Notes: generated by a model from the sequence alone, not told the origin. Shown: positions 29,227-56,521, counted from the stretch's first letter. The stretch is DNA of 64,000 bases from Thermoplasmata archaeon (GCA_028864975.1 JAGWLG010000017.1:1624-65623), one strand, 5' to 3'. Numbers and translations: made by a program.

Positions 29227-29245
29227 CCCTTCAACCAAGAGTTCG

Positions 29246-29260: not shown

Positions 29261-29280
29261 ACCACCCCTGTGGCCGCTCC

Positions 29281-29571
29281 ATGGCGCTCTTCGTGGCCCA
29301 GCACCAGCACGCGTCCGATCATTGCCCGGCGAAGGACCCCAAGATGGGCGCGATGCTGCTCCAGCATCTCTCCTCGCCCAACGCGGCCAAGGCGGGGATC
29401 ACGATCCACGGAGAGGCCGTGGCCACGGGGAAGCACCACCTCTTCCTCATCCTCGAAGCCCCCAGCGAGGGCGCCCTCAAGCAGTTCCTCGCGCCGTTCG
29501 GACAGGCAGGAAGCGTCGAGATCATCCCCGCCAGCCCTTGCGAGCAGGTCGTCGCCCAGGGCGGGTGCTAG
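29281..29571 (+). CDS. Small conserved-looking cytoplasmic protein (96 aa)
   Basis: MALFVAQHQHASDHCPAKDP...HHLFLILEAPSEGALKQFLAPFGQAGSVEIIPASPCEQV. The composition is balanced, third codon positions are GC-rich, and an AT-rich box lies upstream. No family is assigned. Confidence 0.55.
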   Translation: MALFVAQHQHASDHCPAKDPKMGAMLLQHLSSPNAAKAGITIHGEAVATGKHHLFLILEAPSEGALKQFLAPFGQAGSVEIIPASPCEQVVAQGGC

Positions 29572-41463: not shown

Positions 41464-42036
41464 TCATGGGCACGCCGACGGGGTGAACCCCGTCGGGTAA
41501 AAGATGGTGAGGTAGGTGGGGGAGGCGTCGACCCAGGCGAGCACGACGCTCACATGCATGTCCACGCCCGCCGAGAAGGTGATGCAAGGGGTGGCGTGGT
41601 CCCAGCTCGTGAGCTGGGCCTGCGTGGTCTGGTACCCCGCCGCGGCGAGCGCCTGCAGGGTCGCAGGGGAGTAAAGGTGGACCGGGTTGTCGAAGGATCC
41701 GGAGCGGGAGACCGATCCCCCCGGAAGGTTGGCACTCGCGATCAGGAAGTCGGGCGTGACCAGGAACTGGTAGAGGACCCCGTCTGCGCTCGACGGGAGC
41801 TGGGTCCCGTTCCCCCCCGGGACGGGGGCCGCACCGAAGGTGAACTCCTCGGAGGTCGCGGCGCTCAACCCTTCGTCCCGGTCGACGTGCGTCACGACCG
41901 AGGTCACGACCGCCTCCAGGGCACCTCCCACCCCCGTGTTGCGGTCCATCGCGACGACGGCCGACATCCCGATGATCACGAGCGTGAGGGCGACCATGCT
42001 CGCCACGAGGAGGGAGACCACCCAGTCGAAGATCAT
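41464..42036 (-). CDS. Pilin-like/minor-pilin-like protein (N-terminal hydrophobic helix plus beta-rich body)
   Basis: Start ATG at 42036 overlaps the upstream stop at 42033-42035 (ATGA). N-terminus MIFDWVVSLLVASMVALTLVIIGMSAVVAM. The upstream part of the listed ORF 41464..42555 is Arg/Pro-rich shadow sequence. Confidence 0.6.
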   Translation of the reverse strand: MIFDWVVSLLVASMVALTLVIIGMSAVVAMDRNTGVGGALEAVVTSVVTHVDRDEGLSAATSEEFTFGAAPVPGGNGTQLPSSADGVLYQFLVTPDFLIASANLPGGSVSRSGSFDNPVHLYSPATLQALAAAGYQTTQAQLTSWDHATPCITFSAGVDMHVSVVLAWVDASPTYLTIFYPTGFTPSACP

Positions 42037-42605
42037 CCGCCGTAGGCCCTCCCGACCAGGACGTAGTCGAGGACCCCGCCGCCCGGGAGCGGATAGGCGC
42101 GCTTCTCGAAGAAGAGCGTCATCGAGCTGCCCACCGTCGTGGGGAACGCCGGGCCGAGGGCGGAGGAGAGGTTCGTCATCAGGACGTTCCCGGCTCCTGT
42201 TGACGCGAGGGCCCTGTAGGTCGTGCTCCCGACCACGCCGACGGCCCAGGCCGCCTGATAGTTCGGGGTTCCCCCCGAGGTCAGCAAGGCCGCGCCGACG
42301 GTCACGAGGGCGCCTCCGGGATTGACGTCGAGCAGCAGGGTCGTGTTCAGGTCCCCCTCGAAGGTCTGGACCGCGGTGGAGACGATGTCGTTCACGACGA
42401 CCTCCATCTGGTCGGTCTCCTGGAACGAGCGGAACGCAAGGAACCCTCCGATCACGATGGGAAGGACCATCGCGAGCACCAGCACGATGATCGTGAGCTC
42501 GAGGGGCATCTCGAGAACGCCCCGTCGCGCCCGGGCGAGACGCCGCCCGCGACACCCCGACCGGGGTCGGGGCCGGAGGATGCCAGTTCGTTGGGGGACG
42601 GTCAT
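42033..42605 (-). CDS. Pilin-like protein with a class-III-like N-terminus
   Basis: Basic leader 'RGRRLARARRGVLE' followed by 'MPLELTIIVLVLAMVLPIVIGG'. ATG at 42605 overlaps the upstream stop (ATGA). Confidence 0.6.
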   Translation of the reverse strand: MTVPQRTGILRPRPRSGCRGRRLARARRGVLEMPLELTIIVLVLAMVLPIVIGGFLAFRSFQETDQMEVVVNDIVSTAVQTFEGDLNTTLLLDVNPGGALVTVGAALLTSGGTPNYQAAWAVGVVGSTTYRALASTGAGNVLMTNLSSALGPAFPTTVGSSMTLFFEKRAYPLPGGGVLDYVLVGRAYGG

Positions 42606-43135
42606 GCGAGGTACACCACGAACGACGTCGTGGCCGTCTCCGTGGAGGTGGAACCGACGCTGGCCGGGGGCGTGTAGGTGCCCGTGGCCGTCATATCGAC
42701 GTAGGGGGAGTGCGTGGGCGGCGCGGGGGAGAAGGTCAGCTCGACGCTCCCGTTGCTCCCGGTGGTGCCGATGGCGCCGGTGCCGCCCCCGGCGAGCGTG
42801 ACCGCGACGCCGGGAAGCCCGGCCCCGTGCTCGTCCGAGGCGAGCACCCAGACGTAGATCGGGGTCGAGGACTCGGTCAGGAACCCTCCGCCCCCTCCCC
42901 GGGAGTCCGTGACGCTCACAGCGGAGAGGTGGTGGGCCTGGGCGTAGCCGAGCCAGAAGAAGAGGAGCGTGACCCCGGCTCCGATGATCATGATCGAGAT
43001 GACGAGCTCGAGCCCCATGCCTTCGAGGGTCGCGCGTCGCCCTCGCAGCCTCCTTCGAGACGAGGAGGAGCGGAGCAGCGCAGGGTGGGGGGATGGGACC
43101 ACCACGCTCTTCCTAGGCCACGGTCGAGATTTCAT
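42602..43135 (-). CDS. Pilin-like protein with a class-III-like N-terminus
   Basis: 'RRRLRGRRATLEGMGLELVISIMIIGAGVTLLFFWL' is followed by a Gly/Thr-rich beta body. The start is at the internal Met 43135 of ORF 42602..44650 (alternative Met at 43018), 62 nt after the FlaJ-like stop. Confidence 0.6.
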   Translation of the reverse strand: MKSRPWPRKSVVVPSPHPALLRSSSSRRRLRGRRATLEGMGLELVISIMIIGAGVTLLFFWLGYAQAHHLSAVSVTDSRGGGGGFLTESSTPIYVWVLASDEHGAGLPGVAVTLAGGGTGAIGTTGSNGSVELTFSPAPPTHSPYVDMTATGTYTPPASVGSTSTETATTSFVVYLA

Positions 43136-43197
43136 CCTTCGGACACGTGGGCCGGTGGACGAGGGCGGGGGGGAGAGGACGCCGAGGTCGGGAGGGG

Positions 43198-45357
43198 TCA
43201 CGAGCCCGCCCCTCCTCCGAGGAAGACGATCCCGAGGAAGGCCCCGACCGCGTAGACCAGGACCGCCAGCCAGAGGAACTGCCCAACGAGCGTCCAGAAC
43301 TTGAGCCGGTCCCCGCCGGTCTCGATCCCGATCGAGAAGGCCCCGATGATGAAGACCATCTCCAGGAGGTAGACCCCCATCACGGCAAAGAAGAGGGGCG
43401 GTGGGACCGCCAGCGCGCCGCTGGCGAGGACCCCCGAGAGCAGAAGGTAGAGCGCCCCCGTCATCCCCATGACGATCGGGGCGAAGAAGAAGGCCGAGCC
43501 CTTCATCATCTGGACCGTGCCGCGCAGCGAGGTCCGGATCGAGGCGTCGGTGTTCCGGAGCTCCTTCAGGTGCTGGGCCATCGGGATCACGGTGTCCGTG
43601 ACCGCCTGCGGGCCTTTCGAGGCCGCCTCCAGCAAGGCGCGCAAGGAGACGCGCATCTGGCGAGAGGGATAGCGGGTCAGAAGGCCCGGGCCCCGTGCCG
43701 AACCGAAGAGCGCCTGCTCGGGGGTCCCTCCGCTCACCCGAAGGACGTGGAGCGTCCGGTCGAAGAACTGGGAGGACTCGGTCCCCCGCATCCCCGCGCT
43801 CGTCCGTTCCACCGCGCGCTCGAAACGGAGCCCTTCGCCCATACGGCTCGCGAGCTGGAAGAGCGTGTCGGGGAACTCGTTCTCGAGCTTCTGGAGGGCG
43901 TTGCCCCGCTTGGCGAGGGCCCGGGTCCGCACGTGCACCCCCATCGAGATGCCGGCGCCCAGCCCGAGGAGCACGAAGACCGGCCAGGCCAGGGTCCCGG
44001 GGGGGCCGAAGTACCCCAGGTAGGCGGGGAGCGCGAGGGCTCCCGCCAAGCCCCCCGTGGCGGCCGCCAAGAGCGCGGACTCGCCTCGCGACGGTCGGCG
44101 GACCCCCTGCTCCGGGGGGCGGGGCGGCGTGACGGTCCCCGGACGTTTCGAGAGGATCTGCATGGAATAGAGGAGCGCGACGAAAGGGAAGCCGACGTCC
44201 ATGGCGAGGACGAAACCGACGACCGTCACGATGCTGTTCGTGCTGTTGGCGGAGGTTCCCGCTGATCCTGTCGTGGACGGTGCCCCCGCTGTTCCCGCTC
44301 CTGCGCCAGGGCCGGCCCCCAGGTTCCCCACGTTCGCGAGGTTCGACAGGAAGACCATCGGCAGCATCGCCCCGATGACGAGGGGCAGCAGGACCCCCAG
44401 CGCGAAGAAGACCGTGGTGGGTCCTGAGAGGGAGGAGGCGAACTCCTCGATCTTCCGACGGGTCCCGGAGAGGACGATGTCCTGGGCCTTCTCCAGGTTC
44501 CGCGTCAACCCTTCGTCGGTCTTCTCGTGGGTCGAGAGGCGGAGCGCGTACATGGACCGCATGAAGTCCTCGTTCCAGTTCCCCCACTCGTCGGCGAAGT
44601 GGAGGAAGGACTCCTCGAGCGAGGGGTGCTTGCGGGACATCACGTCCCACTGGACCTTCTTGAGAGCGGCCCCCAAGTTCCCCTCGACGTTCTCGGAGGC
44701 GAACCGGACCGCCCGGGGGAGCGACCGGTTGAGCCTCAGGGACATGGCCATGTAGTGGACGGCTTCTGGGGCCCGTCCCAGGGTCTGCACGCGCAGACGC
44801 CGCGCCAGCATGCCCGGGTAGTTGTACACGAACAGGTAGAGCGAGATGGGGAGCACGAAGGCGAGCAGCGCGACCACGAGGAGGAAAGGCGAGACGACCC
44901 CCTGGCTGAGGACCACGAGGGCCACGAGGGTGCCCACGAGCGCGACAAAGGAGAGCAAGAGCCCTCCCACCGCGGCGTAGTGCACCTCGTCCGGGGTGAC
45001 CTCGAGCCCGGCGAAGTAGATCTCCCGCTTGAAGGCGGTCCGACGGACGGCCTCTTCCAGGCTCTCGCAGCGGCGCTGCAGCGAGGCGAGCTTCCGCTCC
45101 TGGCGGTCCCTCGCGGAGCCGCCGTGAGGGTCGATCGCCTCCTCGCGGGCGAGGATGGAGGTGAGGCGTTGACGGTCCGCGCGGGCGCGCTCCAGCGCCC
45201 TCTGCAGCCGGGCGGTCCTCCGGGCCGGGTCTGCGTAGCCGAGCAGTGCGCGGCCCAGGAGGTGGACGAGCGCGACGTACGCCTTCCCCGGGGCCTCCTC
45301 CTGGACGGTCGGGGGACCCGCGGGCGGGCTTCCCAGCGGGGCTTCCGCGCTATCCAT
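43198..45357 (-). CDS. FlaJ/TadC/PilC-type (T2SSF) polytopic platform protein, fused two-domain archaeal form (720 aa)
   Basis: Two repeats of [TM helices plus a cytoplasmic helical domain]: 'YPGMLARRLRVQTLGRAPEAVHYMAMSLRLNRSLPRAV' and 'LENEFPDTLFQLASRMGEGLRFERAVERT'. An N-terminal coiled-coil-like extension is present. The start at 45357 overlaps the ATPase stop by 8 nt. Confidence 0.8.
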   Translation of the reverse strand: MDSAEAPLGSPPAGPPTVQEEAPGKAYVALVHLLGRALLGYADPARRTARLQRALERARADRQRLTSILAREEAIDPHGGSARDRQERKLASLQRRCESLEEAVRRTAFKREIYFAGLEVTPDEVHYAAVGGLLLSFVALVGTLVALVVLSQGVVSPFLLVVALLAFVLPISLYLFVYNYPGMLARRLRVQTLGRAPEAVHYMAMSLRLNRSLPRAVRFASENVEGNLGAALKKVQWDVMSRKHPSLEESFLHFADEWGNWNEDFMRSMYALRLSTHEKTDEGLTRNLEKAQDIVLSGTRRKIEEFASSLSGPTTVFFALGVLLPLVIGAMLPMVFLSNLANVGNLGAGPGAGAGTAGAPSTTGSAGTSANSTNSIVTVVGFVLAMDVGFPFVALLYSMQILSKRPGTVTPPRPPEQGVRRPSRGESALLAAATGGLAGALALPAYLGYFGPPGTLAWPVFVLLGLGAGISMGVHVRTRALAKRGNALQKLENEFPDTLFQLASRMGEGLRFERAVERTSAGMRGTESSQFFDRTLHVLRVSGGTPEQALFGSARGPGLLTRYPSRQMRVSLRALLEAASKGPQAVTDTVIPMAQHLKELRNTDASIRTSLRGTVQMMKGSAFFFAPIVMGMTGALYLLLSGVLASGALAVPPPLFFAVMGVYLLEMVFIIGAFSIGIETGGDRLKFWTLVGQFLWLAVLVYAVGAFLGIVFLGGGAGS

Positions 45358-47740
45358 GCTGGAGCGCCCCCCGCAACCACTCGAGCCACTCGGAGTAGAG
45401 GGCACTGTAGTCGACGCGATGGTCGATGATCTCCTCCGCATGCCGCTCGAGGAGCTCCCAGAACGCGGCGTTCGAGGAGGCGACCCAGGGCGCGGAGAGG
45501 ACGTCGGGGCGCCCCTCGCCCTTGGCGACCTCGACCAGCTTCTCCCGGATCCGGGCCCTCAGCCGGATGTTCTCCATGGCCTCGGCGTAGGAGAGCCCCC
45601 AGGCCTGAGCGATCCGACGTATGCGGTCGGACCCTTCCACGAGCGCGCTGGTCTCCCGGAGCTGGTCCGTCGATTCGTCGTAGGCGAGGAGCTCCCGGAA
45701 CGTCCCCGGGGCGACCCCTTCCTCCTTCGCGACCTCGCTCACTTCGAGGACGCGGCGGCGCTGGGACCGCACCGACCCCGCGGGGTTGGTGAGCCCGCTC
45801 ACCACGACGACGTCCGTCGCGTTGAACGAGGTCGCGGAGATCCCGATATCGTGGACCACACGCTCGAAGATCGCGCGGGAGGAGTTCCCGTGGATGGTCC
45901 CCAGGACGGCGCTCCCGGCGGTCCCCGCCCGCATCGCTTCGTAGAGGGTCCGGGCCTCCTGGCCCCGGACCTCACCCAGGACGATCGCGCTCTCTCCGAG
46001 CCGCAGGGAGACCTTGAGCGCGTCCTCCGCGCTCATCTCGGTCTCTCCTCCCACCGAGGATCGGACGAAGATGGTCTGCACCTTGTAGCCGAACTGCCGC
46101 ATCTCGACGCTGGGAAGCTCGAGGGTGTCCTCGATGGTAAGGATCCTCTGGGTCTTGGGGAACTCGAGCATGAGCGCCCCCACGAGGGAGGTCTTCCCCG
46201 CGCCGCGCGCCCCTGCGACGAGGATGGTCGAGCGGCCGTCGATGAGGAAGGAGAGGAGCCCCGCGGCGAGGGGGGTCATGGCCTCGAGGTAGACGAACTT
46301 CGTGAGCGTCCACGGGTCCGTTGCGTGGCGCCGGAGCGCCATGGCGATCCCGTCGGGGGAGAGCGGACGGCCGATCACCGTCGCCCGGACCCCGTAGTCC
46401 CTGAGGTCGGTCTCGAGGACCGGCATCGACTCGGAGAAGGGGCGGCCGCTCTCCACCAGCAGTCGCGCGAGCAGCGCTTCCGCTTCCTCGTCGGTCACGG
46501 TCACGTTCGTGATGCACTTGTCGCCGATGTCCCGGCGACCGAACCCTCCGACCCGAAGGTGGACACGGTTCTCCGAGGCCGGGGCGTCAACGTAGAGGTC
46601 CTGGACGTGCGGGTCGGCGAGCAGCACCTCCAGCACGCCAAAGCCCACGACGTGCCGCGTCAGCACCTCCGAGAGCTGCTCCAGCTTCGCCAGTCGAGCC
46701 GAGGAGTTCCCGGGGAGCACGATCCCGGTCTCGCGCGAGACCCGCTGGAGGAAGCGAAGCGAGAGCTCGTGCACGACGTGCCGCGTCTGGGAGAGGCTGT
46801 TGACCGTGAGGTGCTTCGGATAGTACTCGACGAGCTCGTCGCGGGTCCGGTGCAGGAGCTCGACCTCGTCCTCCGTCAGATGATAGTCCGCCAGGTCGAG
46901 GTGGTAGAGGATGTCGATCTCCTCGGGGACCCGGTAGAGACGTACCTGGCTGCGTCCGAGCGGGTACTCGGTCAGGAGCTCGGCCCCCTCGGGCGGGACC
47001 AGGTTCACCCAGCAGCCGGAGAATCCCGGGCGGGTCAACGAACCTCGGCGCAGCCGTCGCGTGACCATCCGGGAGAAGTTGGGCGGGACCCGCTCGAGGC
47101 TCGCCTGGATCCCGCGAAGGACCCCGGGCCGCTCCTCCACGGGAAGCGCTCGGCGGGGTGCGAGGGCGCTGAACCCCGCGCGGCCTCCCCCCAAGGGGAG
47201 GCCGATCCCCCCGGAGGGGGTCAGCGGGGCACGAAGTGCGATGGGTGGAGGGGCCACCGCGGGGACCACGGGGGCCGTCCGGACCCCCGCCCACGGAGGC
47301 GAGGCCGGGGTCGAAGGCGGAGCGGGGGCTGACGACGGGGGGGAGCTCAGAGCGCTGGCCCCGGCGGCCGTCCCTGTGCTCGGTAGGTGCGCGCGGAGCC
47401 AAGGGGGCGGCGGCGGTGGCGCCCGCTGCGCCTCGGGAGGGGGCAGCGTGGGGGAGGAGGGAGGGGGAGGTGACGCGGGCGGAGGGGCCGAAGGAGGAGG
47501 AGGAAAGGGAGCAGTCAGAGGTCCTGGTGCAGGAGAGGGTACGGGCGGGGGCGGGGCCCCAGTTGGTGGAGGCGGCGGAGGGGTGTAATGGGTCACTGGG
47601 ACGGGAGGCTCCCTCCATGGATCGTGGGGCGGAGCGGGGCGTTCGGTGTCGAGGGCGATCGAGGTGATCGTGAGGCCGCAGGTGGGGCAAGCCCGCTCGC
47701 CCTCCCGCAACCGTGTACCGCATCGCGGGCAGTTCCCCAT
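45350..47740 (-). CDS. FlaI/PilB/VirB11-type secretion ATPase with an N-terminal zinc ribbon and a ~170-aa Pro-rich linker
   Basis: Walker A 'VAGARGAGKTS', Asp box 'ILTIEDTLEL', Walker B 'AIVLGEVRGQEA', His box 'VLGTIHGNS'. N-terminus 'MGNCPRCGTRLREGERACPTCG' is followed by PPPPP-rich sequence. Confidence 0.9.
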   Translation of the reverse strand: MGNCPRCGTRLREGERACPTCGLTITSIALDTERPAPPHDPWREPPVPVTHYTPPPPPPTGAPPPPVPSPAPGPLTAPFPPPPSAPPPASPPPPSSPTLPPPEAQRAPPPPPPWLRAHLPSTGTAAGASALSSPPSSAPAPPSTPASPPWAGVRTAPVVPAVAPPPIALRAPLTPSGGIGLPLGGGRAGFSALAPRRALPVEERPGVLRGIQASLERVPPNFSRMVTRRLRRGSLTRPGFSGCWVNLVPPEGAELLTEYPLGRSQVRLYRVPEEIDILYHLDLADYHLTEDEVELLHRTRDELVEYYPKHLTVNSLSQTRHVVHELSLRFLQRVSRETGIVLPGNSSARLAKLEQLSEVLTRHVVGFGVLEVLLADPHVQDLYVDAPASENRVHLRVGGFGRRDIGDKCITNVTVTDEEAEALLARLLVESGRPFSESMPVLETDLRDYGVRATVIGRPLSPDGIAMALRRHATDPWTLTKFVYLEAMTPLAAGLLSFLIDGRSTILVAGARGAGKTSLVGALMLEFPKTQRILTIEDTLELPSVEMRQFGYKVQTIFVRSSVGGETEMSAEDALKVSLRLGESAIVLGEVRGQEARTLYEAMRAGTAGSAVLGTIHGNSSRAIFERVVHDIGISATSFNATDVVVVSGLTNPAGSVRSQRRRVLEVSEVAKEEGVAPGTFRELLAYDESTDQLRETSALVEGSDRIRRIAQAWGLSYAEAMENIRLRARIREKLVEVAKGEGRPDVLSAPWVASSNAAFWELLERHAEEIIDHRVDYSALYSEWLEWLRGALQHG

Positions 47741-47760
47741 GAGCTCCTCCTCCCTCGACC

Positions 47761-48849
47761 TCAGCTGCTGCCTCGACCCGGGGTCGAAGCTCCCGGTGGA
47801 GGGGACGGCGAGGAGGGGGAGGACGAGCTCGCCGAAGTCGGGCCTCCGCGTCCGGCAGCTTTGCCGCGGGAGGTGCTCGAACCACCTCGGACCTTGGAGA
47901 CGAGCTCGGAGAGCTCATGGCTCACGAGCTCAAGGTCGCTCACCGTCACGCCGAGGCAACGCACACACTCCTCGTCGGGCCGCCCCGTGCCCAGCACCTG
48001 GACCTTTTCCTTGAGGTCGTCCAGGAATTCCGGCCAACCGATCCGAAGGCTCTCCTCAAGCTCGGGGAAGAACATCCGGGGATTGAAGGCGCACGTCGCA
48101 CAGTCCAGGCGCTTGAGCCGACGCTGCAGGTTGCCGCGGTTGGTCTCCACCGTGGAGATCTTCTCTTCCAGAGGGAGCTCCTGTGGCGTCGACCCTGGGG
48201 ACGGCGCGACGCTACCTGAGGGGGGTGCGCTACTCCGCGACGGGAAGGAGGTCGCACGGGGCGGGGGGGCCGTGGGACCGGCGCGGCCCAAGGGATCGGG
48301 AGCGGTCGTCGCCTCTGAAGAGGGTCGCACCGGTGGGGGCGTGGGGGGAGTGCGGCGCGCGCCCGGGCCCAGGACGCGGCGGAGCTCCTCCTCCTTCTCC
48401 TCCTCGGCCTCCTCGTCGTCGACGGGGGCCCGGGCGGCCTCAAGGTCCGCCTGGCGGTAGAGGTCCTCTAGAAGGTCGTCGAGGTCCGCGCCCGGGATGA
48501 CGATCCCGTCGAGGAGGGGCTGCGGCGGTCGCGTCGCCAGCTGCTGAAGGAGCTTCTGCAGGCCCAGCACCTGCCGCAGCAGCTGGACGGTCTCGCTCGA
48601 GAACTGCCGCATCGTCCGCCCCGACAAGGTCAGGAGGTCGACGTGGTACTCCTCGCCGAGGGCTTGGAGCACGGCCGCGAGGCAGCGGGGGTCGGCGAGC
48701 GCGTCGGGCCCCTCGCAGGCGTCGCAGCGAAGGATCAGATTCGCGGCGCCCCCGGAGGAACGGACCTCGTACTCGAACGGGGGGACCTCGACCTCCTCCG
48801 GCGGCTCCTCCTCCTCGTCGTCCGCGCGACGCCGGTCCGGGGGGGTCAT
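47761..48849 (-). CDS. Acidic cytoplasmic protein with two Cys motifs, immediately upstream of the ATPase (unknown function)
   Basis: 'CDACEGPDALADPRC' near the N-terminus and 'CATCAF...x44...CVRC' near the C-terminus, with Glu/Asp runs and a Pro/Ser-rich centre. It sits in the same position as the uncharacterised 'X' genes of crenarchaeal ups/aap pilus operons. This is positional analogy only. Confidence 0.6.
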   Translation of the reverse strand: MTPPDRRRADDEEEEPPEEVEVPPFEYEVRSSGGAANLILRCDACEGPDALADPRCLAAVLQALGEEYHVDLLTLSGRTMRQFSSETVQLLRQVLGLQKLLQQLATRPPQPLLDGIVIPGADLDDLLEDLYRQADLEAARAPVDDEEAEEEKEEELRRVLGPGARRTPPTPPPVRPSSEATTAPDPLGRAGPTAPPPRATSFPSRSSAPPSGSVAPSPGSTPQELPLEEKISTVETNRGNLQRRLKRLDCATCAFNPRMFFPELEESLRIGWPEFLDDLKEKVQVLGTGRPDEECVRCLGVTVSDLELVSHELSELVSKVRGGSSTSRGKAAGRGGPTSASSSSPSSPSPPPGASTPGRGSS

Positions 48850-48901
48850 CGTCCTCCGAACGCTCCCCGGAGAGGGAAGGGCCCCGGGCCCTCCTCAGCG
48901 C

Positions 48902-50791
48902 TCACCCGAACCCCGGTGGCAATCGGGAGGACCGGCGGGTCCGACGGCCCCGGCTCGTGCCTCCTCTCGGGCGTCCGCGCGCCCCCCAACCCCGCTCTTG
49001 GCGCCCTAGACGGGGGCTCTCTTCCACGTCCGGTGGCGGAGGAGGCTCTCGGCCCGAACGGAAGAGCAAGGCACCCGCGACGGCCGCGCCGACGACGAGC
49101 AGCGCGACCCCCATGATCTCGGCCAGGAAGAAGGGGTCGGGAGGAGGGGGGGCGGGGAAGGTGGTCCCGCTCCCGACGGCGACCTCCTGGTAGAGGCCGA
49201 AGAACGACCTCAGGGTGACGGAGACATTGTAGGTCGTGCCGGGGGAGAGTCCCGTGAACGTCGTCGTCGTCAAGGCGGGGTCGGTCAAGGTGACCCAACC
49301 GCCCATCGCGGGACGGGGGTAGAGCTGGACCGCGTAGGAGACGAACCCCTGGACCGAGGAACCCGCGAGGTTCCAGGCCACGGTGAACGAGCTGGGCGTG
49401 ACGCCGTAAACGTAGACCACGAACCCCGGCGGCGAAGGGGCACCCGCGTCCAGGACCACCATGAGCTCGGGGAGCGCCTGGCCCGCGACGTGCTGCATGC
49501 CCACGGCGACGACCGCAAGGTCGTTGGAGGAGGCGGCGGAGAGCGAGGTCGAGGGAAGTTGGACCGTCCGGTACGGCGCGGCGGGGCCGGAGGAGAGGTT
49601 CTCGAACGGCGTGTAGTAGTAGCGCAACGTGCTGCCGATCGTCCCTGCGCCGAGGAGCGCGAAGTACGCCGGGTCGTCGGTCGAGAGCAGGACCTGCGGA
49701 AGGGGGCTCGAGAGGGTGAGCGACCAGACGGGAGTGGTGTAGGCCCCTCCCGGGCTGCCCGACATCGCCAGGGCGTTGAACGCGTAGAGCCCCCTCGTCG
49801 TCTCGACCATGAACTCGGCGCCCGAGGGCCCTGTCGCGATCTGCGAGACGCCGTCGAAGGTCGACCCGGTCGTCGCCCCGTAGCTCTGCCCGGTCACGGC
49901 GGTCTTGCCCACGTTGAAGCCGGTGTTCCCTCCAAGGAACACGTGGGTCCCGTCTGCGGAGAGGGCCGTTGCGGTGGCCGTCGCCCCGGGGTTGGGCCAG
50001 CTGTAGTTGAGAGTCGGGCTGCCGAAGTAGGGGAAGATCGTCGCCTCCGAGGTGCGGCCCTGAAGGTTCACCGTGAGCGCGACCAAGCTCCCATCGGGGG
50101 TCATCGCCACGCCCATCCCCGCCGGGGTCACTCCCCCTAAGGCCGTGTAGTGCCAGGTCATCTTGCCGTGCACGAGGTAGGCGAGGGCGACCCCCGCGAG
50201 CCCGTTCTGCAGGAACGAGCTGAGGACGGCCACGTCGCTGCTCTCGGCGTCGACCGCGACCGCGACGACCTGCTGGTTGGTGATCCCCTTTCCGAAGTAG
50301 GCCAGGTTGTCCGTGAAGTTCCAGGCCTGGAGGAAGCTCCCCGGCTGGGTCAGATTGAGCGCGTAGACCTCCGCCCCCACGGAGGTCAGGACCAGGCTGT
50401 TGGTCCCCGGGGCGGGACCCCGGGCGGAGACGGTCAGCGTCGTCGGTGCCGCGGGCAGGGCGAAGACCCCCAGCGGCTGGTTCGAGGAGATGTTGAAGAG
50501 GTAGACGTGGCCGCTGGTCGAGCCCGCCGCGACGTACCCCGGGTCGCCGGAGACCGCGACCAGGGAGATGGCGGCGGAGTCGGAGGTGTTGAAGCTCCAG
50601 CTTCCCGAGGAGATCGGGGTCAGGCTGGGCTGCAGGATCGCGGGGGCACTGCCCTCAGTGCGCGGAGCGGCGCCCGCCGGGGCCGCTGTCCCGACCGACG
50701 GCAGAGCCAGGAGGAGTCCCAGGAAGAGCGTGAGCACGACCGGAGCTTTCCAGACGACCGTGCTCTTGGGGCCCGGCCCCTTTCCGTTCAT
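48902..50791 (-). CDS. Secreted beta-propeller-like plus fibronectin-III protein with a C-terminal TM anchor
   Basis: The start at Met 50791 overlaps the upstream stop (ATGA). Signal peptide VVLTLFLGLLLALPSVGTA. Recurring blade-like motifs: 'SGDPGYVAAGSTSGHVYLFN', 'MTPDGSLVALTV', 'LSADGTHVFLGGNTG'. FN3: 'TPSSFTVAWN...FTGLSPGTTYNVSVTLRS'. TM FFLAEIMGVALLVVGAAVAGALLF. Confidence 0.7.
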   Translation of the reverse strand: MNGKGPGPKSTVVWKAPVVLTLFLGLLLALPSVGTAAPAGAAPRTEGSAPAILQPSLTPISSGSWSFNTSDSAAISLVAVSGDPGYVAAGSTSGHVYLFNISSNQPLGVFALPAAPTTLTVSARGPAPGTNSLVLTSVGAEVYALNLTQPGSFLQAWNFTDNLAYFGKGITNQQVVAVAVDAESSDVAVLSSFLQNGLAGVALAYLVHGKMTWHYTALGGVTPAGMGVAMTPDGSLVALTVNLQGRTSEATIFPYFGSPTLNYSWPNPGATATATALSADGTHVFLGGNTGFNVGKTAVTGQSYGATTGSTFDGVSQIATGPSGAEFMVETTRGLYAFNALAMSGSPGGAYTTPVWSLTLSSPLPQVLLSTDDPAYFALLGAGTIGSTLRYYYTPFENLSSGPAAPYRTVQLPSTSLSAASSNDLAVVAVGMQHVAGQALPELMVVLDAGAPSPPGFVVYVYGVTPSSFTVAWNLAGSSVQGFVSYAVQLYPRPAMGGWVTLTDPALTTTTFTGLSPGTTYNVSVTLRSFFGLYQEVAVGSGTTFPAPPPPDPFFLAEIMGVALLVVGAAVAGALLFRSGREPPPPPDVEESPRLGRQERGWGARGRPRGGTSRGRRTRRSSRLPPGFG

Positions 50792-51360
50792 GGTCCCCAG
50801 AGCTCCACCCCCACGGTCACCGACGTGTAGCCGCTGTTCAGCGGGGGGAGGGTCGTCCAGGAGGTATAGACCTGATTCTCCGTGCCGGGGGGGGTGGGAC
50901 CCAGGTCCAAATGGGCCGGGTTCCCGCAACCGGTGGCATTGGAGGCAAGGGATGCGAACGTCCATTCCCCGGAGGTGATGTTCACGAGGGCGCTCCCGAT
51001 GTCCCCTCCTACGAACCCGGCCTGAATAAGGCTCGAGGTCCCCACCGTACCGCACCCCAACCCCTGGAGGGCGGTGGCGAGCAGTTGGGAGACGGGCTGG
51101 TCGAAGAGCAGGACCGTCCCCCCGGAGCTCTGGGGAAGCCGGGTCTCGTGAAGGGTGGTCCTCAGCAGGGTCGCGAGGGTGGCTTGGGCATCCCGTTCTC
51201 CGACCACCGAGGCCGCGGACCCCTGGACGGGCGGGACCAGCACGGTGTCGATCACCACCACTGCGAGGGCGAGGATCGGGAGGAAGAGGACCGCATCGAA
51301 GAGCGCGAGCTGACCACGCTGCGTGCGGATCCGTCGTCCTCTCGGCGTATCTGGACCCAT
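50788..51360 (-). CDS. Pilin-like / TadE-like protein with a class-III signal-like N-terminus
   Basis: 'MGPDTPRGRRIRTQRGQ|LALFDAVLFLPILALAVVVI' has a basic leader, an RGQ motif and then a hydrophobic helix, as in archaeal prepilins and TadE-type pseudopilins. Confidence 0.65.
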   Translation of the reverse strand: MGPDTPRGRRIRTQRGQLALFDAVLFLPILALAVVVIDTVLVPPVQGSAASVVGERDAQATLATLLRTTLHETRLPQSSGGTVLLFDQPVSQLLATALQGLGCGTVGTSSLIQAGFVGGDIGSALVNITSGEWTFASLASNATGCGNPAHLDLGPTPPGTENQVYTSWTTLPPLNSGYTSVTVGVELWGP

Positions 51361-51370
51361 GCGACCTCCC

Positions 51371-51856
51371 TCACTCCCAGACGGTGACCTCGATCGTCGC
51401 ATCGTGCATCTCCACGTCGCTCACCCACAGGTCCACGGGGGCCTGGGCGGCGTAGCGGCCCAGGCGCAGCGCGCTGGGGTCGGTCGGCAGCGCGCCGCTC
51501 GCGACGACTCGGTCGAAGTGGGCGGGGTAATCCGACCGGTCGGTGATGTTCACCTCGAACCCGTAGGAGGGATGGTACTCCCAGCTGATGTTCGACTCGG
51601 TGAGGTTGACGACGCGCGAGGCATCGAAGACCGCGTACTGCCCCTGGTAGGTCAGGTTCCGGTAGCCCAGGAGGTCCTCCAGGAGGAGGGAGGCCTGCTC
51701 GGCGAAGGACGAACGGCCCTGACGAGCGGAGAGGGTGGTGAAGGTCGCGTCCAGGGCGGAGAAGAAGAGGATGAAGGAGATGACCACGATCAGGAGGACG
51801 GGGACCTCTTCGAGGAACCCCGCGACCCCGCGACGGGACCGCCGTGAGAGGCGCAT
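51371..51856 (-). CDS. Pilin-like protein, first gene of the operon
   Basis: 'MRLSRRSRRGVAGFLEEVPVLLIVVISFILFF' is followed by a beta-rich body with N-x-S/T sequons. The start is at Met 51856 (internal to ORF 51371..51961), with an AT-rich box about 30 nt upstream. Confidence 0.6.
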   Translation of the reverse strand: MRLSRRSRRGVAGFLEEVPVLLIVVISFILFFSALDATFTTLSARQGRSSFAEQASLLLEDLLGYRNLTYQGQYAVFDASRVVNLTESNISWEYHPSYGFEVNITDRSDYPAHFDRVVASGALPTDPSALRLGRYAAQAPVDLWVSDVEMHDATIEVTVWE

Positions 51857-51882
51857 GGGCGCCTCTTCACGTCCTGGTGAGC

Positions 51883-51890
51883 ATTTAATC
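51883..51890 (-). promoter_or_regulatory. TATA-like box (gattaaatg on the minus strand) about 30 nt upstream of ATG 51856. Candidate promoter of the pilus-like operon
   Basis: It is the only AT island in the divergent 192-nt region between 51856 and 52049. Coordinates are +/-2 nt. Confidence 0.45.
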
Positions 51891-52048
51891 CTCCCCTCGA
51901 GGGGGAACCGACCGAGGACGAGCCTGGGTACGAACGTTTTTGCCCCCGCGAGGCCAGTCACTCTTCACCGACCGGTGGTGGGCCCTCCGTCCCGTCCGAA
52001 CGGAGGTCCGACAGGACCGGGCGAACGCGTGGAAGGTGGAACCGGCCG

Positions 52049-55000
52049 ATGGGAGGAGGGCCGCCCGCGAGCCTCGTTCCCCGAGGTCGGGCCCTTCGTC
52101 GCGACCGACACGGGAGGGTCCCCTACGCCTTCGCGGCCTTGGTCGTGGGGTTGGCCCTCCTCTTGCTCGTGAGCTCGCTGCTCTCCTCCGAGGTCCTCTG
52201 GACGGGAGGGATTACCGGGCACGACACCGAGATCGTCGATCAGGCGATGACGAGCGCGGTCGCGATGCTCGAGGAGAACGCCAGTGAGGCCCTGCTAGGG
52301 GAGCTCGCCCATCTTCTCGAGGGAGGAGCGAACCTGCCCCTGCAGCTCCTGAACTCGTCGGTCGCCTCCGACGTTCAGCAGTACGTGGCCACGGCCTTCC
52401 ACGGCTCCACCACGCACTCCCCCCTCTGCCCCTCGGGACGCGACATGGGGCCGGCGACCGTCTGCGTGCTCTCCTTCTGGGTGGGAGTGACCTTCCCTTC
52501 GTGGCAAGGGAACGGGCTGGCCCCGAACGTCGCGCCGACACCGCCGGACGCGGGCAGCGCCTGGCCCGCGATGCCGGGACAGGAGGTCTCGACGACCGGA
52601 TTCTCGGTGCCTGCGCAGGTCAACGAGACCCCCTTTCCTGCGGTGGTGGGGGCCTTCGTCCTCTCTGCGGTCGACCCGAGCGGGACGTCGACGGTGGCGA
52701 GCTACCCCTTCCTCCGTACCGAGACGGTGCCCCTCGGGCTCCTGGAGTCCTCCTCGGACCTCTTCACGGCGGACCTGACCGGCCCGGACGGTGGCTTCGC
52801 CCGACTCGCGGCCTACATCCTCTCCACCGTGGCGGAGCTACGCGCGCTCCTGGGGTACGGGAGCGGAGGGTACTCGGGTCCGGACACGGGGGCGACGACA
52901 GGGGTCGCCGAGGTCCTTACGCCGGCGGACGTGGCGAACGCGGGGGCGCTGGCCGTGATGGTCGAGACCCTCTACACCTTCCATGCGACCGACCCCAGCG
53001 CCGTCACGCTCTTCGGCAATTCCCTTCCTCCTCGCTTTTCCTCGCTCCTGCACGCGGCCCTTCAGGGGCGCATCGACGGGGCCGCGCTCTTCCTCTACCT
53101 CGAGAGCACGCCCGGGTCGCTCTGGTCGAACGAGAACGTCGCCGTGGGGGAGACGCTGGCCCAGGCGATCTCCTCGTTCTCGGACCGCTTCACCTTCGAC
53201 CTCCTGCACACGATCTGGGGGGCGCAGACCGTCGATCCCACGCTGCGGGAACCGGTCGCGGACTGGGCGTTCGTCTGGTCGCTCACCTCTCAGTGGGCGC
53301 AGGCGCGTCTCTCCCAGTACATGACCCAATACCGGTCGTGGATGGGCTCGCAGCTCTCGCATCTCACGAGCTACACGGGGACCTCCCCCGTGGGGATCAT
53401 GGGGGCGTGGGCCGACCAGGACGGACCTGGGGACCTGCTCTGCTACTACCCCTCGACCGGGGGCCCCATCTGGGTCGGTATCCCCGACTTCTACACGATC
53501 TTCCCAGGGGGAAGCTACTCCGCGACCACGGGGGCGGTGGGGAACACCACGTCGCTCGTGCTGGGGAATCCCAACGCGGCGGCCCCCTACAACCCTGCCC
53601 CCTACGTCGTCAAGACCACGCTCAAGATCAACGCTCAAGGCGGCCCGTCGACGATCAAGCACACGTTCGACTACACGCTCGTCGACAGCTCGCTGCTCGG
53701 GGAGTACACCACTTCGACTCCGACGAACGGAGCGTCGAACGACACGCTGACCCAGCTCCTGACCGACCTTTCCTGGAGCATGAGCACCCCCGCCGGCTCT
53801 TCCCTCTCCTCGCCGGGGTACGTTCCGTACGTCGCGGGTTGGATGGATGGGCAGGTCCCGTCAGGGCTCTCTACGAGCTCGGTGGGCGTTCCCGACCCCA
53901 CCTCCCCGCTCCAATTGGGGCCATCGGGGGCCGGGTCGACCTACCTTCAGGACGGGGTGGGCTCGCTCTACTCGGGGCCCTTCGCCTCCGCGCTCTCGAC
54001 GCTCGCCGCCGACGAGCCAACGCAGTCCTCCTCCTGGTTCGTCCAAGGAGCGGAGTATCCCCGGGGGCTGGGGTCGGGGCCGAACCAGGGGGACGCGAAC
54101 TCGCTGCTCGACATCGCGCGCCTCGCGGTGCGCCTCTGGACGATGATGGACTACAACCTCTACTGGGGCGGCATCGGGCAGATCACGCCCATCTACACCT
54201 TCGGGCCGGTCTCCTACCAGCAGCAGGCCCCGTACGACGAGCGCATCTCCTCGCCGCCCGCCCCCTACAGCTTCCCGGACTTACCCCAGGACCTCCAGGT
54301 TTCCGCCTTCGATGACATCTACAAGTGGATCTCGACGCACACGGCCTCCCCGTCCTGCTCGTACGACTCGGCGTGCCAGGCCGGGTATTACGGCGCGATC
54401 TGCGTCAGCCCCTGGGGGCCGGGGAGCGGCTACTTCAACGCGCTCGCGCTCTACTTCTGGAACCCGCAGGGGGTCTGGGACGCCCTCGCCCCCTCGACCC
54501 TGACCGTCGCCGCGGGGTCGGTGGGGAGGGTCGCCTCGCAAGCGCAACCGGCCCTCGTGAGTGCTTGGGCGGACACCGGCAACGCCCACTGGAACTCGGC
54601 GTACTTCCGCTCCTGGGTCGAGCAGAGCCTGGGAGGCTCAGAGGTGCTGCCCGACATGGCCAGCCTCGCCTCGACCTGGGCGCCGGAGCTCTACGGGAAC
54701 GCCCAGAGCTGGAACTCGCGCGTCCTGGACGAGCACACGCTGGTCGACCAACCCACGCTGCTTGGAGGGTTGCCGTTCCAGGCCTGGCAGGGGAACCGTT
54801 CTCAGGCCGTGGCCGGCGGGGGATTGTTGGACGAAGGACCTCCCCAGGTGTCGCTCGCGCTTCGTGGTACGACGCTCGGGCTCTCCCCGCCGCTCGAGAC
54901 GCTCCAGTTCGTCGACCCGCAGGACCGGTCGTCAGACATGGGGATCTCCCCGTTCCAGACGACCTGGGACGTGCGGTACTCGTCGACGGTGGACCTGGTG

Positions 55001-56521
55001 CTCACCGTCCCCGGGGACCCGGTCCTTCCGGGGCCGAGCGGCCCCGAGCCCACGCGGCTCGCCCTCAGTGTGCCGTTGCACGCGGAGTTCCCCGTGACGG
55101 TGGTGACCCCTTGGCCCCTCGAGACCGGGGCGCAGGGGGTCCCGAGCGACCCGACGCTCACCTACACCCGGGGGCTGACCGGCATCGAGGGGGCGGACGT
55201 CCACGTCGCACGGAACCCGGACTTCCTGCCGGGGACCTACGTCTCGCCGACCCTGATCGACCTGCTCGGCCGGGTGGGGATCGTCGGGGGCGAGGTGCTC
55301 GGGGAGACGACCGCCGACGCGTCGCTACTCTCCGCCCTACCGGACACGGCCGCGTCGGGAGGGCCGGGGGCGGCGGAGGGGCTGGGGGATGGCCTCGACT
55401 ACGCGACGAACGCCATGGTCGCGACGGACCAGCAGGGTAACTCCGCCTCGGTCCGGGGGGACATGGGCACGATGAACTCGCTCCTTTCTCGGATCGGCTT
55501 CCCGTCGCTTCTCTACCTCAACAACTATGCTTTCCTGGGAGACAACCTTTCGTTGACCCTCCAAGGGACCTACGTGGCGACCTTCGGAGAGGGCACGAAC
55601 GCGGCCAGCGTGCTCGACGCGTCCCTCACCTTCTCCGCGAGCGCGCTCTCGTTCATCTCGGTCGACTACGACAACGCTTACGCACCCTACACGTTCTCCC
55701 TCGTCCACACGCCGAACGGGGCCACGGGCCTGGGGCTCCAGTTGCGCGCGGGATGGCTCCGTTGGGGGGTCACATCCTCACTTGCCCTCACCGCCCCGGG
55801 GGGAGGACCGGCAGGGCCCTCGGGAGGCGGGCCGACGGCGCTCGGTGCGCTCTACGTTCCCGCCCTCGGGACCACGGTGCCCTCTGCGGACCTCTACGAG
55901 CAAGGTTCTCCCTCGCTCCCCTCCCCGGCGGCCGGGGCGTACTCGCGTTCGGTGGGCGAGTGGCTCTCCTCGTACGGTCCCACCGCGCCGCCCACGTTCG
56001 ACGAGGTGGTCTCGGCCGAGCAGTTCGCCTTCGGGTACTACTACGACTCCGTCCGACAGTCGGGACTCTCAGGGACGTTGGACAGGATCGACCTGGGCGT
56101 CTCGCTCGGCTTGGGGAACACCTGGTCCTCCGGTAGCATCGCCTACGCTCCCGGTGGCGCGGTGACGGCTGCGGGGTTGGAAACGTTCCTCGAGTGGGCC
56201 GTCAGCGCGAACCGACCGCTCGCCTATGCCCTGGGCGAGCCGACCCCCGATGAGCAGGTCATCGCGCAGCTCCCCCCCTCGCTTCTCGCTTCGGTGTTCT
56301 GGAACGATAGTCTCGGTGGCTGCGGCGGGGGCCTGGGGTCGTGTCCCGCGGTGGGCGACGTGTACGCGAACTACCCCGGCGCGTTCTCCTCGCCGAACCT
56401 GGCCGCGATCGAGTCGGACCTTGGCGGACTGGGCGGCGGGCTCTCGAACCACCCCGAGGTCATTCTAGGGGGCAACGGACCCTCGGGGAGCTCCCCCTTC
56501 CTCGGGCAGCTCACGTACTGA
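52049..56521 (+). CDS. Giant (1490 aa) N-terminally anchored extracytoplasmic protein with no recognisable domains
   Basis: N-terminus 'RGRALRRDRHGRVPYAFAALVVGLALLLLVSSLL' has a basic stretch followed by a hydrophobic helix. The rest is Ser/Thr/Gly/Ala-rich and aromatic-rich, with no internal repeats or motifs that I can name. It is transcribed divergently from the pilus-like operon. Confidence 0.8.
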   Translation: MGGGPPASLVPRGRALRRDRHGRVPYAFAALVVGLALLLLVSSLLSSEVLWTGGITGHDTEIVDQAMTSAVAMLEENASEALLGELAHLLEGGANLPLQLLNSSVASDVQQYVATAFHGSTTHSPLCPSGRDMGPATVCVLSFWVGVTFPSWQGNGLAPNVAPTPPDAGSAWPAMPGQEVSTTGFSVPAQVNETPFPAVVGAFVLSAVDPSGTSTVASYPFLRTETVPLGLLESSSDLFTADLTGPDGGFARLAAYILSTVAELRALLGYGSGGYSGPDTGATTGVAEVLTPADVANAGALAVMVETLYTFHATDPSAVTLFGNSLPPRFSSLLHAALQGRIDGAALFLYLESTPGSLWSNENVAVGETLAQAISSFSDRFTFDLLHTIWGAQTVDPTLREPVADWAFVWSLTSQWAQARLSQYMTQYRSWMGSQLSHLTSYTGTSPVGIMGAWADQDGPGDLLCYYPSTGGPIWVGIPDFYTIFPGGSYSATTGAVGNTTSLVLGNPNAAAPYNPAPYVVKTTLKINAQGGPSTIKHTFDYTLVDSSLLGEYTTSTPTNGASNDTLTQLLTDLSWSMSTPAGSSLSSPGYVPYVAGWMDGQVPSGLSTSSVGVPDPTSPLQLGPSGAGSTYLQDGVGSLYSGPFASALSTLAADEPTQSSSWFVQGAEYPRGLGSGPNQGDANSLLDIARLAVRLWTMMDYNLYWGGIGQITPIYTFGPVSYQQQAPYDERISSPPAPYSFPDLPQDLQVSAFDDIYKWISTHTASPSCSYDSACQAGYYGAICVSPWGPGSGYFNALALYFWNPQGVWDALAPSTLTVAAGSVGRVASQAQPALVSAWADTGNAHWNSAYFRSWVEQSLGGSEVLPDMASLASTWAPELYGNAQSWNSRVLDEHTLVDQPTLLGGLPFQAWQGNRSQAVAGGGLLDEGPPQVSLALRGTTLGLSPPLETLQFVDPQDRSSDMGISPFQTTWDVRYSSTVDLVLTVPGDPVLPGPSGPEPTRLALSVPLHAEFPVTVVTPWPLETGAQGVPSDPTLTYTRGLTGIEGADVHVARNPDFLPGTYVSPTLIDLLGRVGIVGGEVLGETTADASLLSALPDTAASGGPGAAEGLGDGLDYATNAMVATDQQGNSASVRGDMGTMNSLLSRIGFPSLLYLNNYAFLGDNLSLTLQGTYVATFGEGTNAASVLDASLTFSASALSFISVDYDNAYAPYTFSLVHTPNGATGLGLQLRAGWLRWGVTSSLALTAPGGGPAGPSGGGPTALGALYVPALGTTVPSADLYEQGSPSLPSPAAGAYSRSVGEWLSSYGPTAPPTFDEVVSAEQFAFGYYYDSVRQSGLSGTLDRIDLGVSLGLGNTWSSGSIAYAPGGAVTAAGLETFLEWAVSANRPLAYALGEPTPDEQVIAQLPPSLLASVFWNDSLGGCGGGLGSCPAVGDVYANYPGAFSSPNLAAIESDLGGLGGGLSNHPEVILGGNGPSGSSPFLGQLTY

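Follow-up and report, generated by a model that had tools for sequence, protein, structure and literature searches.

A probable type IV pilus-like operon, in or beside archaeal subclade 4F, in an uncultured Thermoplasmata archaeon

What does a tightly packed run of nine archaeal genes build, if a secretion ATPase and a membrane platform stand at its centre among pilin-like and unnamed accessory genes? The question is raised by a 64-kb stretch of DNA (the window) from the metagenome-assembled genome (MAG) of a Thermoplasmata archaeon (GCA_028864975.1, JAGWLG010000017.1:1624-65623), whose minus strand carries the genes, here called g1 to g9, from position 51856 down to 41464. A sequence-only reading of this window had proposed an archaeal type IV pilus (T4P)-like operon and had held that its accessory set was without precedent. 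The first proposal is supported by the core families, the pilin-shaped proteins and the synteny among Thermoplasmata: the locus is likely to be an archaeal type IV filament (T4P-like) assembly operon in or beside the 4F lineage. The second was only partly right. The locus is a lineage-specific variant that extends the archaeal T4P catalogue and overturns no concept.

The features discussed below are as follows (aa, amino acids; nt, nucleotides; TM, transmembrane; HMM, hidden Markov model; AF2, AlphaFold2).

51883..51889, minus strand: TATA-like box, ATTAAAT, about 26 nt upstream of the g1 ATG
51371..51856, minus strand: g1, prepilin-like protein of 161 aa, leader MRLSRRSRRG followed by VAGFLEEVPVLLIVV; one TM segment, a FlaFind-like match, four N-x-S/T sequons
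50788..51360, minus strand: g2, prepilin-like protein of about 190 aa, ...RTQRG followed by QLALFDAVLFLPIL; FlaFind-like match, one TM segment; 204 aa if it starts at 51402
48902..50791, minus strand: g3, surface protein of 629 aa, described from Pfam fn3, TM segments and syntenic orthologs
47761..48849, minus strand: g4, acidic cytoplasmic protein of 362 aa, no TM segment, described from a Cys alignment, a family HMM and an AF2 model
45350..47740, minus strand: g5, secretion-superfamily ATPase of 796 aa, described from Pfam T2SSE, motifs and PDB relatives
43198..45357, minus strand: g6, polytopic platform of 719 aa, FlaJ/TadC type, described from Pfam T2SSF, TM segments and a repeat alignment
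42602..43135, minus strand: g7, prepilin-like protein of 177 aa by N-terminal alignment, ...RRATLEG followed by MGLELVISIMIIG; Ig-like (Big_1-like) C-terminal domain
42033..42605, minus strand: g8, prepilin-like protein of 190 aa, ...ARRG followed by VLEMPLELTIIVLVL; FlaFind-like match, one TM segment
41464..42036, minus strand: g9, leaderless pilin-shaped protein of 190 aa by alignment, starting MIFDWVVSLLVASMVAL; DUF7266-like, conserved C151 and C189
40546..41388, minus strand: g10, membrane protein of 280 aa with three TM segments, a long Pro-rich linker and a C-terminal Zn ribbon
52049..56521, plus strand: g0, acidic surface protein of 1490 aa, one N-terminal TM segment (aa 27-45), described from its motif and synteny; no Pfam family

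The two central genes identify the machinery. g5 consists of a Zn ribbon (aa 3-23), a Pro-rich tether (about aa 30-200), an N-domain and a core that matches Pfam T2SSE (PF00437) with an E-value of 1.2e-18. With a Walker A sequence GARGAGKT at residue 510 and readable Asp, Walker B and His boxes, g5 is a secretion-superfamily ATPase whose catalytic motifs are all intact. The length, N-terminal Zn ribbon and long Pro-rich linker that had been claimed for this protein are borne out, as Pfam recognizes a four-Cys ribbon and a Pro-rich tract of about 170 residues can be read straight from the sequence. The other HMM check suggested for the core is also significant: g6 matches Pfam T2SSF (PF00482) at aa 200-328 (E 1.9e-6; 28.3 bits against a cut-off of 25.2). 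The halves of g6 align with each other (hhalign E 2.7e-4) and the protein has about nine TM segments. The fused platform proposed earlier, with 719 aa and not 720, can be described as a predicted membrane platform with two T2SSF repeats in one chain, the single-chain FlaJ/TadC form.

By contrast with these broad families, g5 falls under the cut-off of every NCBIfam equivalog. It scores 131.9 bits against a cut-off of 373 for the TadA family, 114.9 against 550 for FlaI (NF058587) and 66.7 against 1000 for BasE, and the UpsF model reaches 11.8 bits against 400. Judged by these scores, the locus is not an archaellum, Ups or bindosome operon. The PDB relatives of g5 are CpaF (the best match), AfGspE and FlaI. 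An archaellum-related motility operon, or a bacterial Tad pilus gained by horizontal transfer, would suit the TadA family and FlaI as best NCBIfam matches and CpaF as best PDB match; either is scarcely credible, with both family scores far under their cut-offs. As had been noted for archaellin and the fla genes, none of archaellin, FlaH, FlaX, FlaCDE and FlaF/G was present among the operon or other window ORFs (open reading frames) scanned, and the same scan gave no Flp, TadE, TadZ, RcpA/secretin or separate TadB/TadC. In addition, the platform is fused into a single polypeptide, the archaeal condition, the close relatives are all Thermoplasmata, and the score of a haloarchaeal ATPase is about double that of CpaF.

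That haloarchaeal ATPase directs attention to one described lineage. Archaeal T4P ATPases fall into four clades (Makarova et al. 2016, PMC4858521). Subclade 4F, defined by an arCOG01818 'MA1299-like' ATPase and an arCOG01814 TadC, has members in the Halobacteria, Methanomicrobia, Methanomassiliicoccales and Nanoarchaeota and includes the Thermoplasmata members Mx1201 and BRNA1; its ATPases often have an extra variable N-terminal Cys-rich domain (PMC4858521). The 4F locus of Haloarcula hispanica encodes an Asp-rich cytoplasmic protein, a pilin, the ATPase, TadC, three pilins and a 1000-aa surface protein (PMC4858521). When g5 was compared with an ATPase of Haloterrigena turkmenica plasmid pHTUR04, which has a Cys-containing N-terminus, the match was 205 bits with 40% identity, compared with 112 bits for CpaF, 93 for AfGspE (clade 2) and 81 for FlaI (clade 3). 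Likewise, g6 is 26% identical to a haloarchaeal TadC over 574 aa (E 4e-28). A plasmid collection yielded two haloarchaeal loci only, both without downstream pilins.

The locus shares with 4F a layout in which a cytoplasmic acidic protein, the ATPase, a single-chain TadC and three pilin-like genes stand together, with a large surface protein nearby. It also shares the Cys-rich N-terminal element of the ATPase, which is here the separate g4 and is fused in sister Thermoplasmata, and the N-terminus of g7, which matches that of a DUF7382 protein beside the haloarchaeal ATPase (probability 84%, E 7.5e-6). However, the Cys-rich module is detached here and has a second four-Cys helical domain, and the ATPase instead bears a Zn ribbon on its Pro-rich tether of about 170 residues. 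Further differences are the extra g1 and g2 upstream, the propeller/FN3 protein g3, the Zn-ribbon membrane protein g10 and the divergent g0; no PilA-family pilin (arCOG02981 or arCOG10216) was recognised in the locus. On the basis of these comparisons, the locus probably belongs to or sits next to subclade 4F. The earlier opinion that the accessory set could not be placed gives way on layout, on Cys-rich ATPase N-termini and on Thermoplasmata membership, and it stands for g1, g2, g3, g8 and g0, which have no demonstrated counterpart; the mapping to 4F is architectural, not gene for gene. To the pilin and accessory families cognate to 4F (arCOG02981, 10216, 04673, 05165-05167, 06291 and 07564), the locus has indirect links only, through the g7 N-terminus with its haloarchaeal DUF7382 match and through g9 with its similarity to DUF7266.

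The most original element of the operon is the g4 module, which undergoes fission and fusion relative to the motor. The acidic Cys-motif protein described earlier is indeed acidic and has seven invariant or nearly invariant cysteines (C42, C45, C56 and C250, C253, C295, C298). These lie in two domains, between which the window lineage has a disordered acidic/Pro-rich stretch inserted; the protein of other lineages has about 200 aa. An exhaustive HMM search over 1.84 billion representatives defined a family of 198 representatives, mostly of 170-220 aa. Seven members of 749-834 aa have the module at their N-terminus, with T2SSE downstream in all seven and ATPase parts that are 43-49% identical to g5. 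The g4 profile detects the ORF directly upstream of the ATPase in 11 of the 11 loci with upstream sequence, and it matches the haloarchaeal ATPase ORF itself (hmmsearch E 2.9e-5). The family, predicted to be cytoplasmic with two Cys clusters, thus sits immediately upstream of the ATPase clade or is fused to the ATPase N-terminus. As a result of this adjacency and fusion, there is strong evidence that g4 acts on the ATPase as a detachable N-terminal module, and its Cys pattern indicates that it probably binds metal. The Cys protein is not the unplaceable accessory it had been taken for; it is the detached form of an N-terminal ATPase module that is fused in seven relatives.

The AF2 model of g4 has a predicted local distance difference test (pLDDT) score above 90 in both the alpha/beta N-domain and the helical C-domain, and Foldseek found no fold match for it in the PDB. 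A word-indexed homolog search with the g4 alignment returned six close relatives only and no link to cultured archaea. The motor itself also varies at this end: across the ATPase clade, N-terminal extensions are absent, a Zn ribbon or an FHA domain. The Thermoplasmata g5 relatives P0073, P0083 and P0097 have FHA where g5 has its Zn ribbon, and this replacement makes the extension look like an exchangeable regulatory slot.

The gene set is conserved beyond the window. A homolog search with g5 found three 'Thermoplasmata archaeon' MAG contigs (loci L001-L003) with ATPase identities of 78-87%, in which g0 through g10 are all syntenic. Whether the gene order is conserved in related MAGs had been left as a check, and six other loci (L001, L002, L003, L006/L007, L008 and L013) do keep every gene from g1 to g9 in the same order, at 61-87% ATPase identity, which is far beyond chance. 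The more distant of these have ten genes in the same order and of similar sizes, with ATPases that are 67% (L006/L007), 65% (L013) and 61% (L008) identical to g5, and g10 is syntenic in every one of the six. The sequence-only reading ended the operon with three pilin-like genes; g7, g8 and g9 are there, but the unit runs on to g10, its tenth conserved member, which starts 75 nt beyond g9. L003 and L013 share contig DAHUZP010000021.1 (record ranges 5811-27820 and 31235-53403), which holds two complete paralogous ten-gene copies a few kb apart; their ATPases are 65% identical to each other, and the copies are separated and flanked by proteins of about 1000 aa. The ten genes form one inherited block, which one MAG has in duplicate.

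At about 50% ATPase identity (L005, L010, L014), only the core of g4-like protein, ATPase and platform is kept, and in L005 the g1-like and g2-like genes are shifted into a divergent operon. At 14051-15367 of L014 (CP070751.1), the g4-like/ATPase/platform trio is followed by a HerA/DUF87-type ATPase in place of the pilin-like genes. The ATPase clade as a whole has thousands of Thermoplasmata relatives, and its named members are all Thermoplasmata or Thermoplasmatota. A literature search on T4P in Thermoplasmatota found nothing on this operon.

The five small proteins g1, g2, g7, g8 and g9 each have one N-terminal TM segment, and the N-terminal peptides quoted for them earlier are present in the translated sequence. 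g1, g2, g7 and g8 have an N-terminus in common: a basic leader ending in R-G, a short acidic and often Pro-containing segment, and a hydrophobic helix of about 20 residues. In ortholog alignments the N-termini are conserved whereas the globular parts differ, with the consensus RR[GA]-[VI]AGF[LF]EE[VIF]P for g1, RRGQ-[LI]AL[FV]D for g2, R[GA]xLEG[ML][GP]L for g7 and RRG-V[LI]EMPLEL for g8. When the N-terminal profiles were aligned with hhalign, g7 paired with g8 at a probability of 95%, g1 with g8 at 62% and g2 with g7 at 54%. A class III signal check, made with a FlaFind-like regular expression and a hydrophobicity filter, gave six sites in the whole window, three of which are g1, g2 and g8; the L006 and L008 orthologs of g7 also fit. 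These four proteins share what appears to be a prepilin-type N-terminus, and on the basis of this conserved module and the genomic context we call them prepilin-like.

Each of these families can be followed in the related loci. Orthologs of g1 occur in L001-3, L006, L008, L013 and L005, and the g2 family HMM also detects a 183-aa gene in L005 (E 1.5e-7); neither g1 nor g2 has a Pfam family. g8 orthologs are 71-87% identical in L001-3, with further genes detected by the family HMM in L006, L008 and L013. Paralogs of g7 adjoin g0-like giants, and the Big_1 match of g7 and its paralogs in Pfam is weak and sub-threshold. The orthologs of g9 always begin at the hydrophobic helix (M[IL]xDW...) without a leader, and the one in L008 scores just under the cut-off of Pfam DUF7266 (2.9e-5; 24.3 bits against 27.6). 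The AF2 model of g9 (pLDDT 73) has a helix of 55 residues (2-56) followed by a beta domain of seven strands, and thus fits the generic pilin shape of helix and beta domain, without a leader. A word-indexed search with the g9 alignment gave ten close relatives only, with no link to cultured archaea. In a related observation, a 136-aa pilin-like protein of L005 (7780-8189, minus strand) matches only the first 33 of the 1000 positions of Pfam DUF7286 (E 1e-5), which suggests that the giant haloarchaeal proteins of that family begin with the same pilin-like N-terminal helix, in parallel to g0. A literature search found no mention of DUF7266 or DUF7286.

Several findings count against a filament of the 4F kind and have to be set beside this evidence. 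The case is built from genes, and both expression and the filament are predicted. The 4F placement depends on one haloarchaeal reference, the pHTUR04 ATPase, which we infer to be GI 284176147 of Makarova and could not confirm as such, and the hhalign match between g4 and the N-terminus of that Haloterrigena ATPase is modest (E 1.7e-4 over 80 columns, probability 50%). Of the small proteins, g7 in its window copy does not fit the strict FlaFind-like pattern, g9 lacks a leader altogether, and none of the five gives a significant match to a pilin Pfam family (Pilin_N, TadE, Class III signal). Structure models cover g9 only among these five, plus g4; although the g9 model is pilin-shaped, Foldseek found no solved pilin or relative for it in the PDB (best E 0.028). 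Of the five pilin-like proteins claimed earlier, all of which are supported as pilin-shaped, four have a common prepilin-type N-terminus. There is no small PilA-type major pilin in the operon, and, as already stated in the sequence-only reading, no prepilin peptidase was detected in the window by motif scan or by Pfam scans of the larger ORFs. The gene for the archaeal prepilin peptidase is often located elsewhere in the genome.

One candidate for such a peptidase was considered close by. Next after g10, in the same direction, comes a 362-aa ORF at 39320-40408 (minus strand) that has about eight TM segments and belongs to no Pfam family. It was rejected as a divergent prepilin peptidase, having no GxGD-type motif, no Pfam match and no synteny, and is probably unrelated to the operon.

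Some of the same observations would fit a machine in which the small proteins are uncleaved, N-terminally anchored membrane proteins of a stator- or scaffold-like kind (compare FlaF/FlaG) and only a pilin encoded in trans is polymerised: g9 lacks a leader, there is neither a pilin Pfam family nor a Foldseek pilin match, and no peptidase is nearby. We consider this improbable. Among 50-87% diverged orthologs, four of the five keep a common N-terminus of basic leader, R-G, acidic/Pro segment and hydrophobic helix and have globular parts that bear no relation to one another, the hallmark of prepilin families; three fit the FlaFind-like pattern; and the g7 N-terminus is common to a haloarchaeal protein that stands beside a T4P ATPase.

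For the preferred reading, a T4P-like filament, the parts can be arranged into a working model. A prepilin peptidase encoded elsewhere would cut g1, g2, g7 and g8 after R-G. The g5 hexamer would dock beneath g6, and ATP would drive the prepilins out of the membrane into a helical fibre. The pilin-like genes are each single-copy, distinct in sequence and fixed in order, so their products would most likely form a priming or tip complex, that is, a minor-pilin set. The bulk subunit may be a pilin from another locus or g1, the first gene, with its four conserved N-glycosylation sequons. g9 may remain in the membrane as a base or anchor. C-terminally anchored g3 and the giant g0, with its pilin-like N-terminal anchor, would give adhesive or scaffold surfaces. 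g4, probably metal-bound, would be the detachable N-terminal module of the motor, and the Zn ribbons that g5 and g10 carry on Pro-rich tethers may bring the motor to the membrane or regulate it there. Such a machine would most likely serve adhesion or the display of large surface proteins.

The accessory proteins bear directly on what that output would look like. At its N-terminus g3 has a Sec-type hydrophobic segment; the rest comprises propeller-like blades, an FN3 domain (aa 454-528; Pfam fn3, E 1.3e-8), a C-terminal TM segment (aa 559-577) and an Arg-rich tail. In the PDB it resembles the designed 'Cake' propellers, with a summed E-value of 7.5e-12 and no single stretch significant, and also the FN3 domains of fibronectin and Dscam. 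The fn3 and TM parts of its earlier description hold, and the propeller label derives only from blade-like similarity to the 'Cake' designs. g10 has a Pfam Zn_Ribbon_1 match at aa 257-276 and is 19% Pro; a similar Zn-ribbon gene comes after the platform in L009 and L013, and Zn-ribbon proteins in T4P loci have precedents. None of the eight non-core proteins belongs to an NCBIfam family, in keeping with the unnamed accessory genes of the earlier description.

g0 is transcribed away from the g1 promoter region. Its orthologs are syntenic, with 63-74% identity in L001-3 and 29% in L008, and the N-terminal motif G-R-[VI]-P-Y-x-F-x-A-L-V is kept in L001, L002, L006 and L008. In L003, L006 and L008 the operon adjoins g0-like giants or other proteins of about 1000 aa, and a g7-like small pilin often comes before them. 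g0 is a candidate pilin-headed adhesin or displayed cargo.

These features also speak for a bindosome-like or type II secretion system (T2SS)-like display machine, in which the small proteins would form a short pseudopilus or scaffold that mounts g0-family giants (about 1000-1500 aa) and holds g3. The syntenic g0 with a conserved pilin-like anchor, the proteins of 960-1535 aa that repeatedly flank the loci, often in a pair with a g7-like small pilin, the lack of a PilA-type major pilin and the 1000-aa surface protein that also ends the haloarchaeal 4F loci all agree with this alternative. A precedent exists in the Sulfolobus bindosome (BasABC/BasEF, subclade 4I), a T4P-like system that displays class III-signal proteins and whose machinery is believed to place large proteins on the cell surface instead of forming long pili. 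Like the present locus, it has small pilin-like proteins and a membrane protein with a Zn ribbon (arCOG07264) next to its ATPase and platform. However, the BasE score of g5 lies far from its cut-off (66.7 against 1000), the cargo here would be giant proteins other than substrate-binding proteins (SBP), and the lineage is different. In addition, the g0 N-terminus does not fit the FlaFind-like pattern, and archaeal major pilins are commonly encoded in trans, which makes the absence of PilA weak evidence. A display machine, which would differ from the filament in its output structure only and use identical machinery, is therefore possible but unlikely.

Other known systems share parts of the filament arrangement. 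Haloferax volcanii PilB3C3/PilA, a euryarchaeal clade 2 system, likewise has an ATPase and TadC module for several pilins, possibly in trans, and a role in adhesion; it differs in the ATPase, where AfGspE gives 93 bits and the 4F-like haloarchaeal ATPase 205, and no PilA-type pilin or arCOG02911-like minor pilin was recognised here. CdiP of Cuniculiplasma divulgatum, the only structurally studied pilus of the Thermoplasmatales, is T4P-like and comes from the same archaeal class and from cells without a canonical surface layer (S-layer), and its pilins are encoded away from its machinery (Gaines et al. 2025, PMC12448462). In contrast to the single ATPase and fused platform of the present operon, CdiP has two ATPases and a platform split in two genes (PMC12448462), and the present locus adds five pilin-like genes within the operon as well as g3, g4 and g10. 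Among bacteria, the minor-pilin/PilY1 priming complexes resemble the present locus in having four distinct low-abundance pilin-like proteins and a large propeller-containing surface protein, and the Tad motor CpaF is the best solved-structure relative of the g5 core. There is, however, no sequence relationship for the pilins or g3, and the locus has an archaeal membrane architecture, a fused platform and no secretin; the likeness to minor-pilin/PilY1 complexes would be functional only.

The gene calls on which these comparisons depend were checked by start-codon context, third-codon-position GC and protein-level conservation, as the window has about 69% GC throughout and is crowded with spurious long ORFs. 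An ORF scan recovered all nine same-direction minus-strand genes, tightly packed, where they had been placed before. Third-position GC is 0.81-0.93 for each chosen frame, which indicates that these frames are the true ones despite the background of spurious ORFs. The junctions measure +10 nt for g1/g2 (-32 nt with the g2 start at 51402), -4 nt for g2/g3, +52 nt for g3/g4, +20 nt for g4/g5, -8 nt for g5/g6, +62 nt for g6/g7, and -4 nt for both g7/g8 and g8/g9. With the chosen starts, the spacing given earlier (overlaps of 4-8 nt or gaps of at most 62 nt) is confirmed, the ambiguous g2 start (51402 or 51360) being the sole exception. Artefact ORFs also lie over real genes, one of 682 aa across g6 and one of 658 aa antisense to g5. 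The first (42602..44650, minus strand) was rejected as a gene: only its last 177 codons, which are g7, are conserved and the rest overlaps g6 out of frame. Automated gene callers could mis-annotate the locus owing to such ORFs.

Upstream of g1, ATTAAAT is the sole A/T-rich element. Four relatives have such an element at equal distance (TATAAAT in L001 and L002, TTATAT in L013, TTAAGT in L008), and this conservation suggests that ATTAAAT is probably an archaeal TATA box, the predicted promoter of a leaderless operon transcript.

The wider window appears to be a region rich in surface proteins. Two giants of 1721 and 2875 aa (94-5259 and 5380-14007, plus strand) have 8-9 'Flg_new_2' (divergent InlB B-repeat) domains each, and PKD proteins lie at 17790-20894 and 56564-59677. 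A 1089-aa protein (59737-63006, minus strand) combines LysM repeats with an NlpC/P60 / Amidase_6 domain, in an archaeon; these domains suggest putative peptidoglycan binding or cleavage and interaction with bacterial cell walls. Paralogous membrane proteins at 20891-22261 (plus strand) and 27877-29439 (minus strand) have an RnfD/NqrB-like domain, the first also a double Zn ribbon, and no other Rnf or Nqr subunits were seen near them.

For the archaeal T4P family, the findings concern both the motor and its substrates. A Cys-rich family of about 200 clusters is tied to a pilus motor by Rosetta-stone fusion and has a confidently predicted fold without a solved relative. The N-terminal signature of four prepilin-like families and one leaderless family is missed by current pilin models, so T4P components are under-annotated in this phylum, and giant proteins with pilin-like N-terminal anchors recur beside the machinery. 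A bolder synthesis, which we regard as doubtful, is that the locus represents a Thermoplasmata-specific T4P-like class: g4 and the tethered Zn ribbons of g5 and g10 would form a metal-binding control unit of the motor, and a pilin-based pedestal would display g0-family adhesins and g3 on cells without an S-layer, with g4 coupling deployment to metal or redox state. If this were true, g4 would be a fold without a solved relative that links filament or adhesin deployment to the metal or redox state of the cell. Sediments, soils and acidic sites harbour abundant uncultured Thermoplasmata. The cultured relatives of these archaea have no regular S-layer, and how they attach to surfaces and partners is little understood. 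The operon is a conserved and sometimes duplicated candidate for attachment in the Thermoplasmata.

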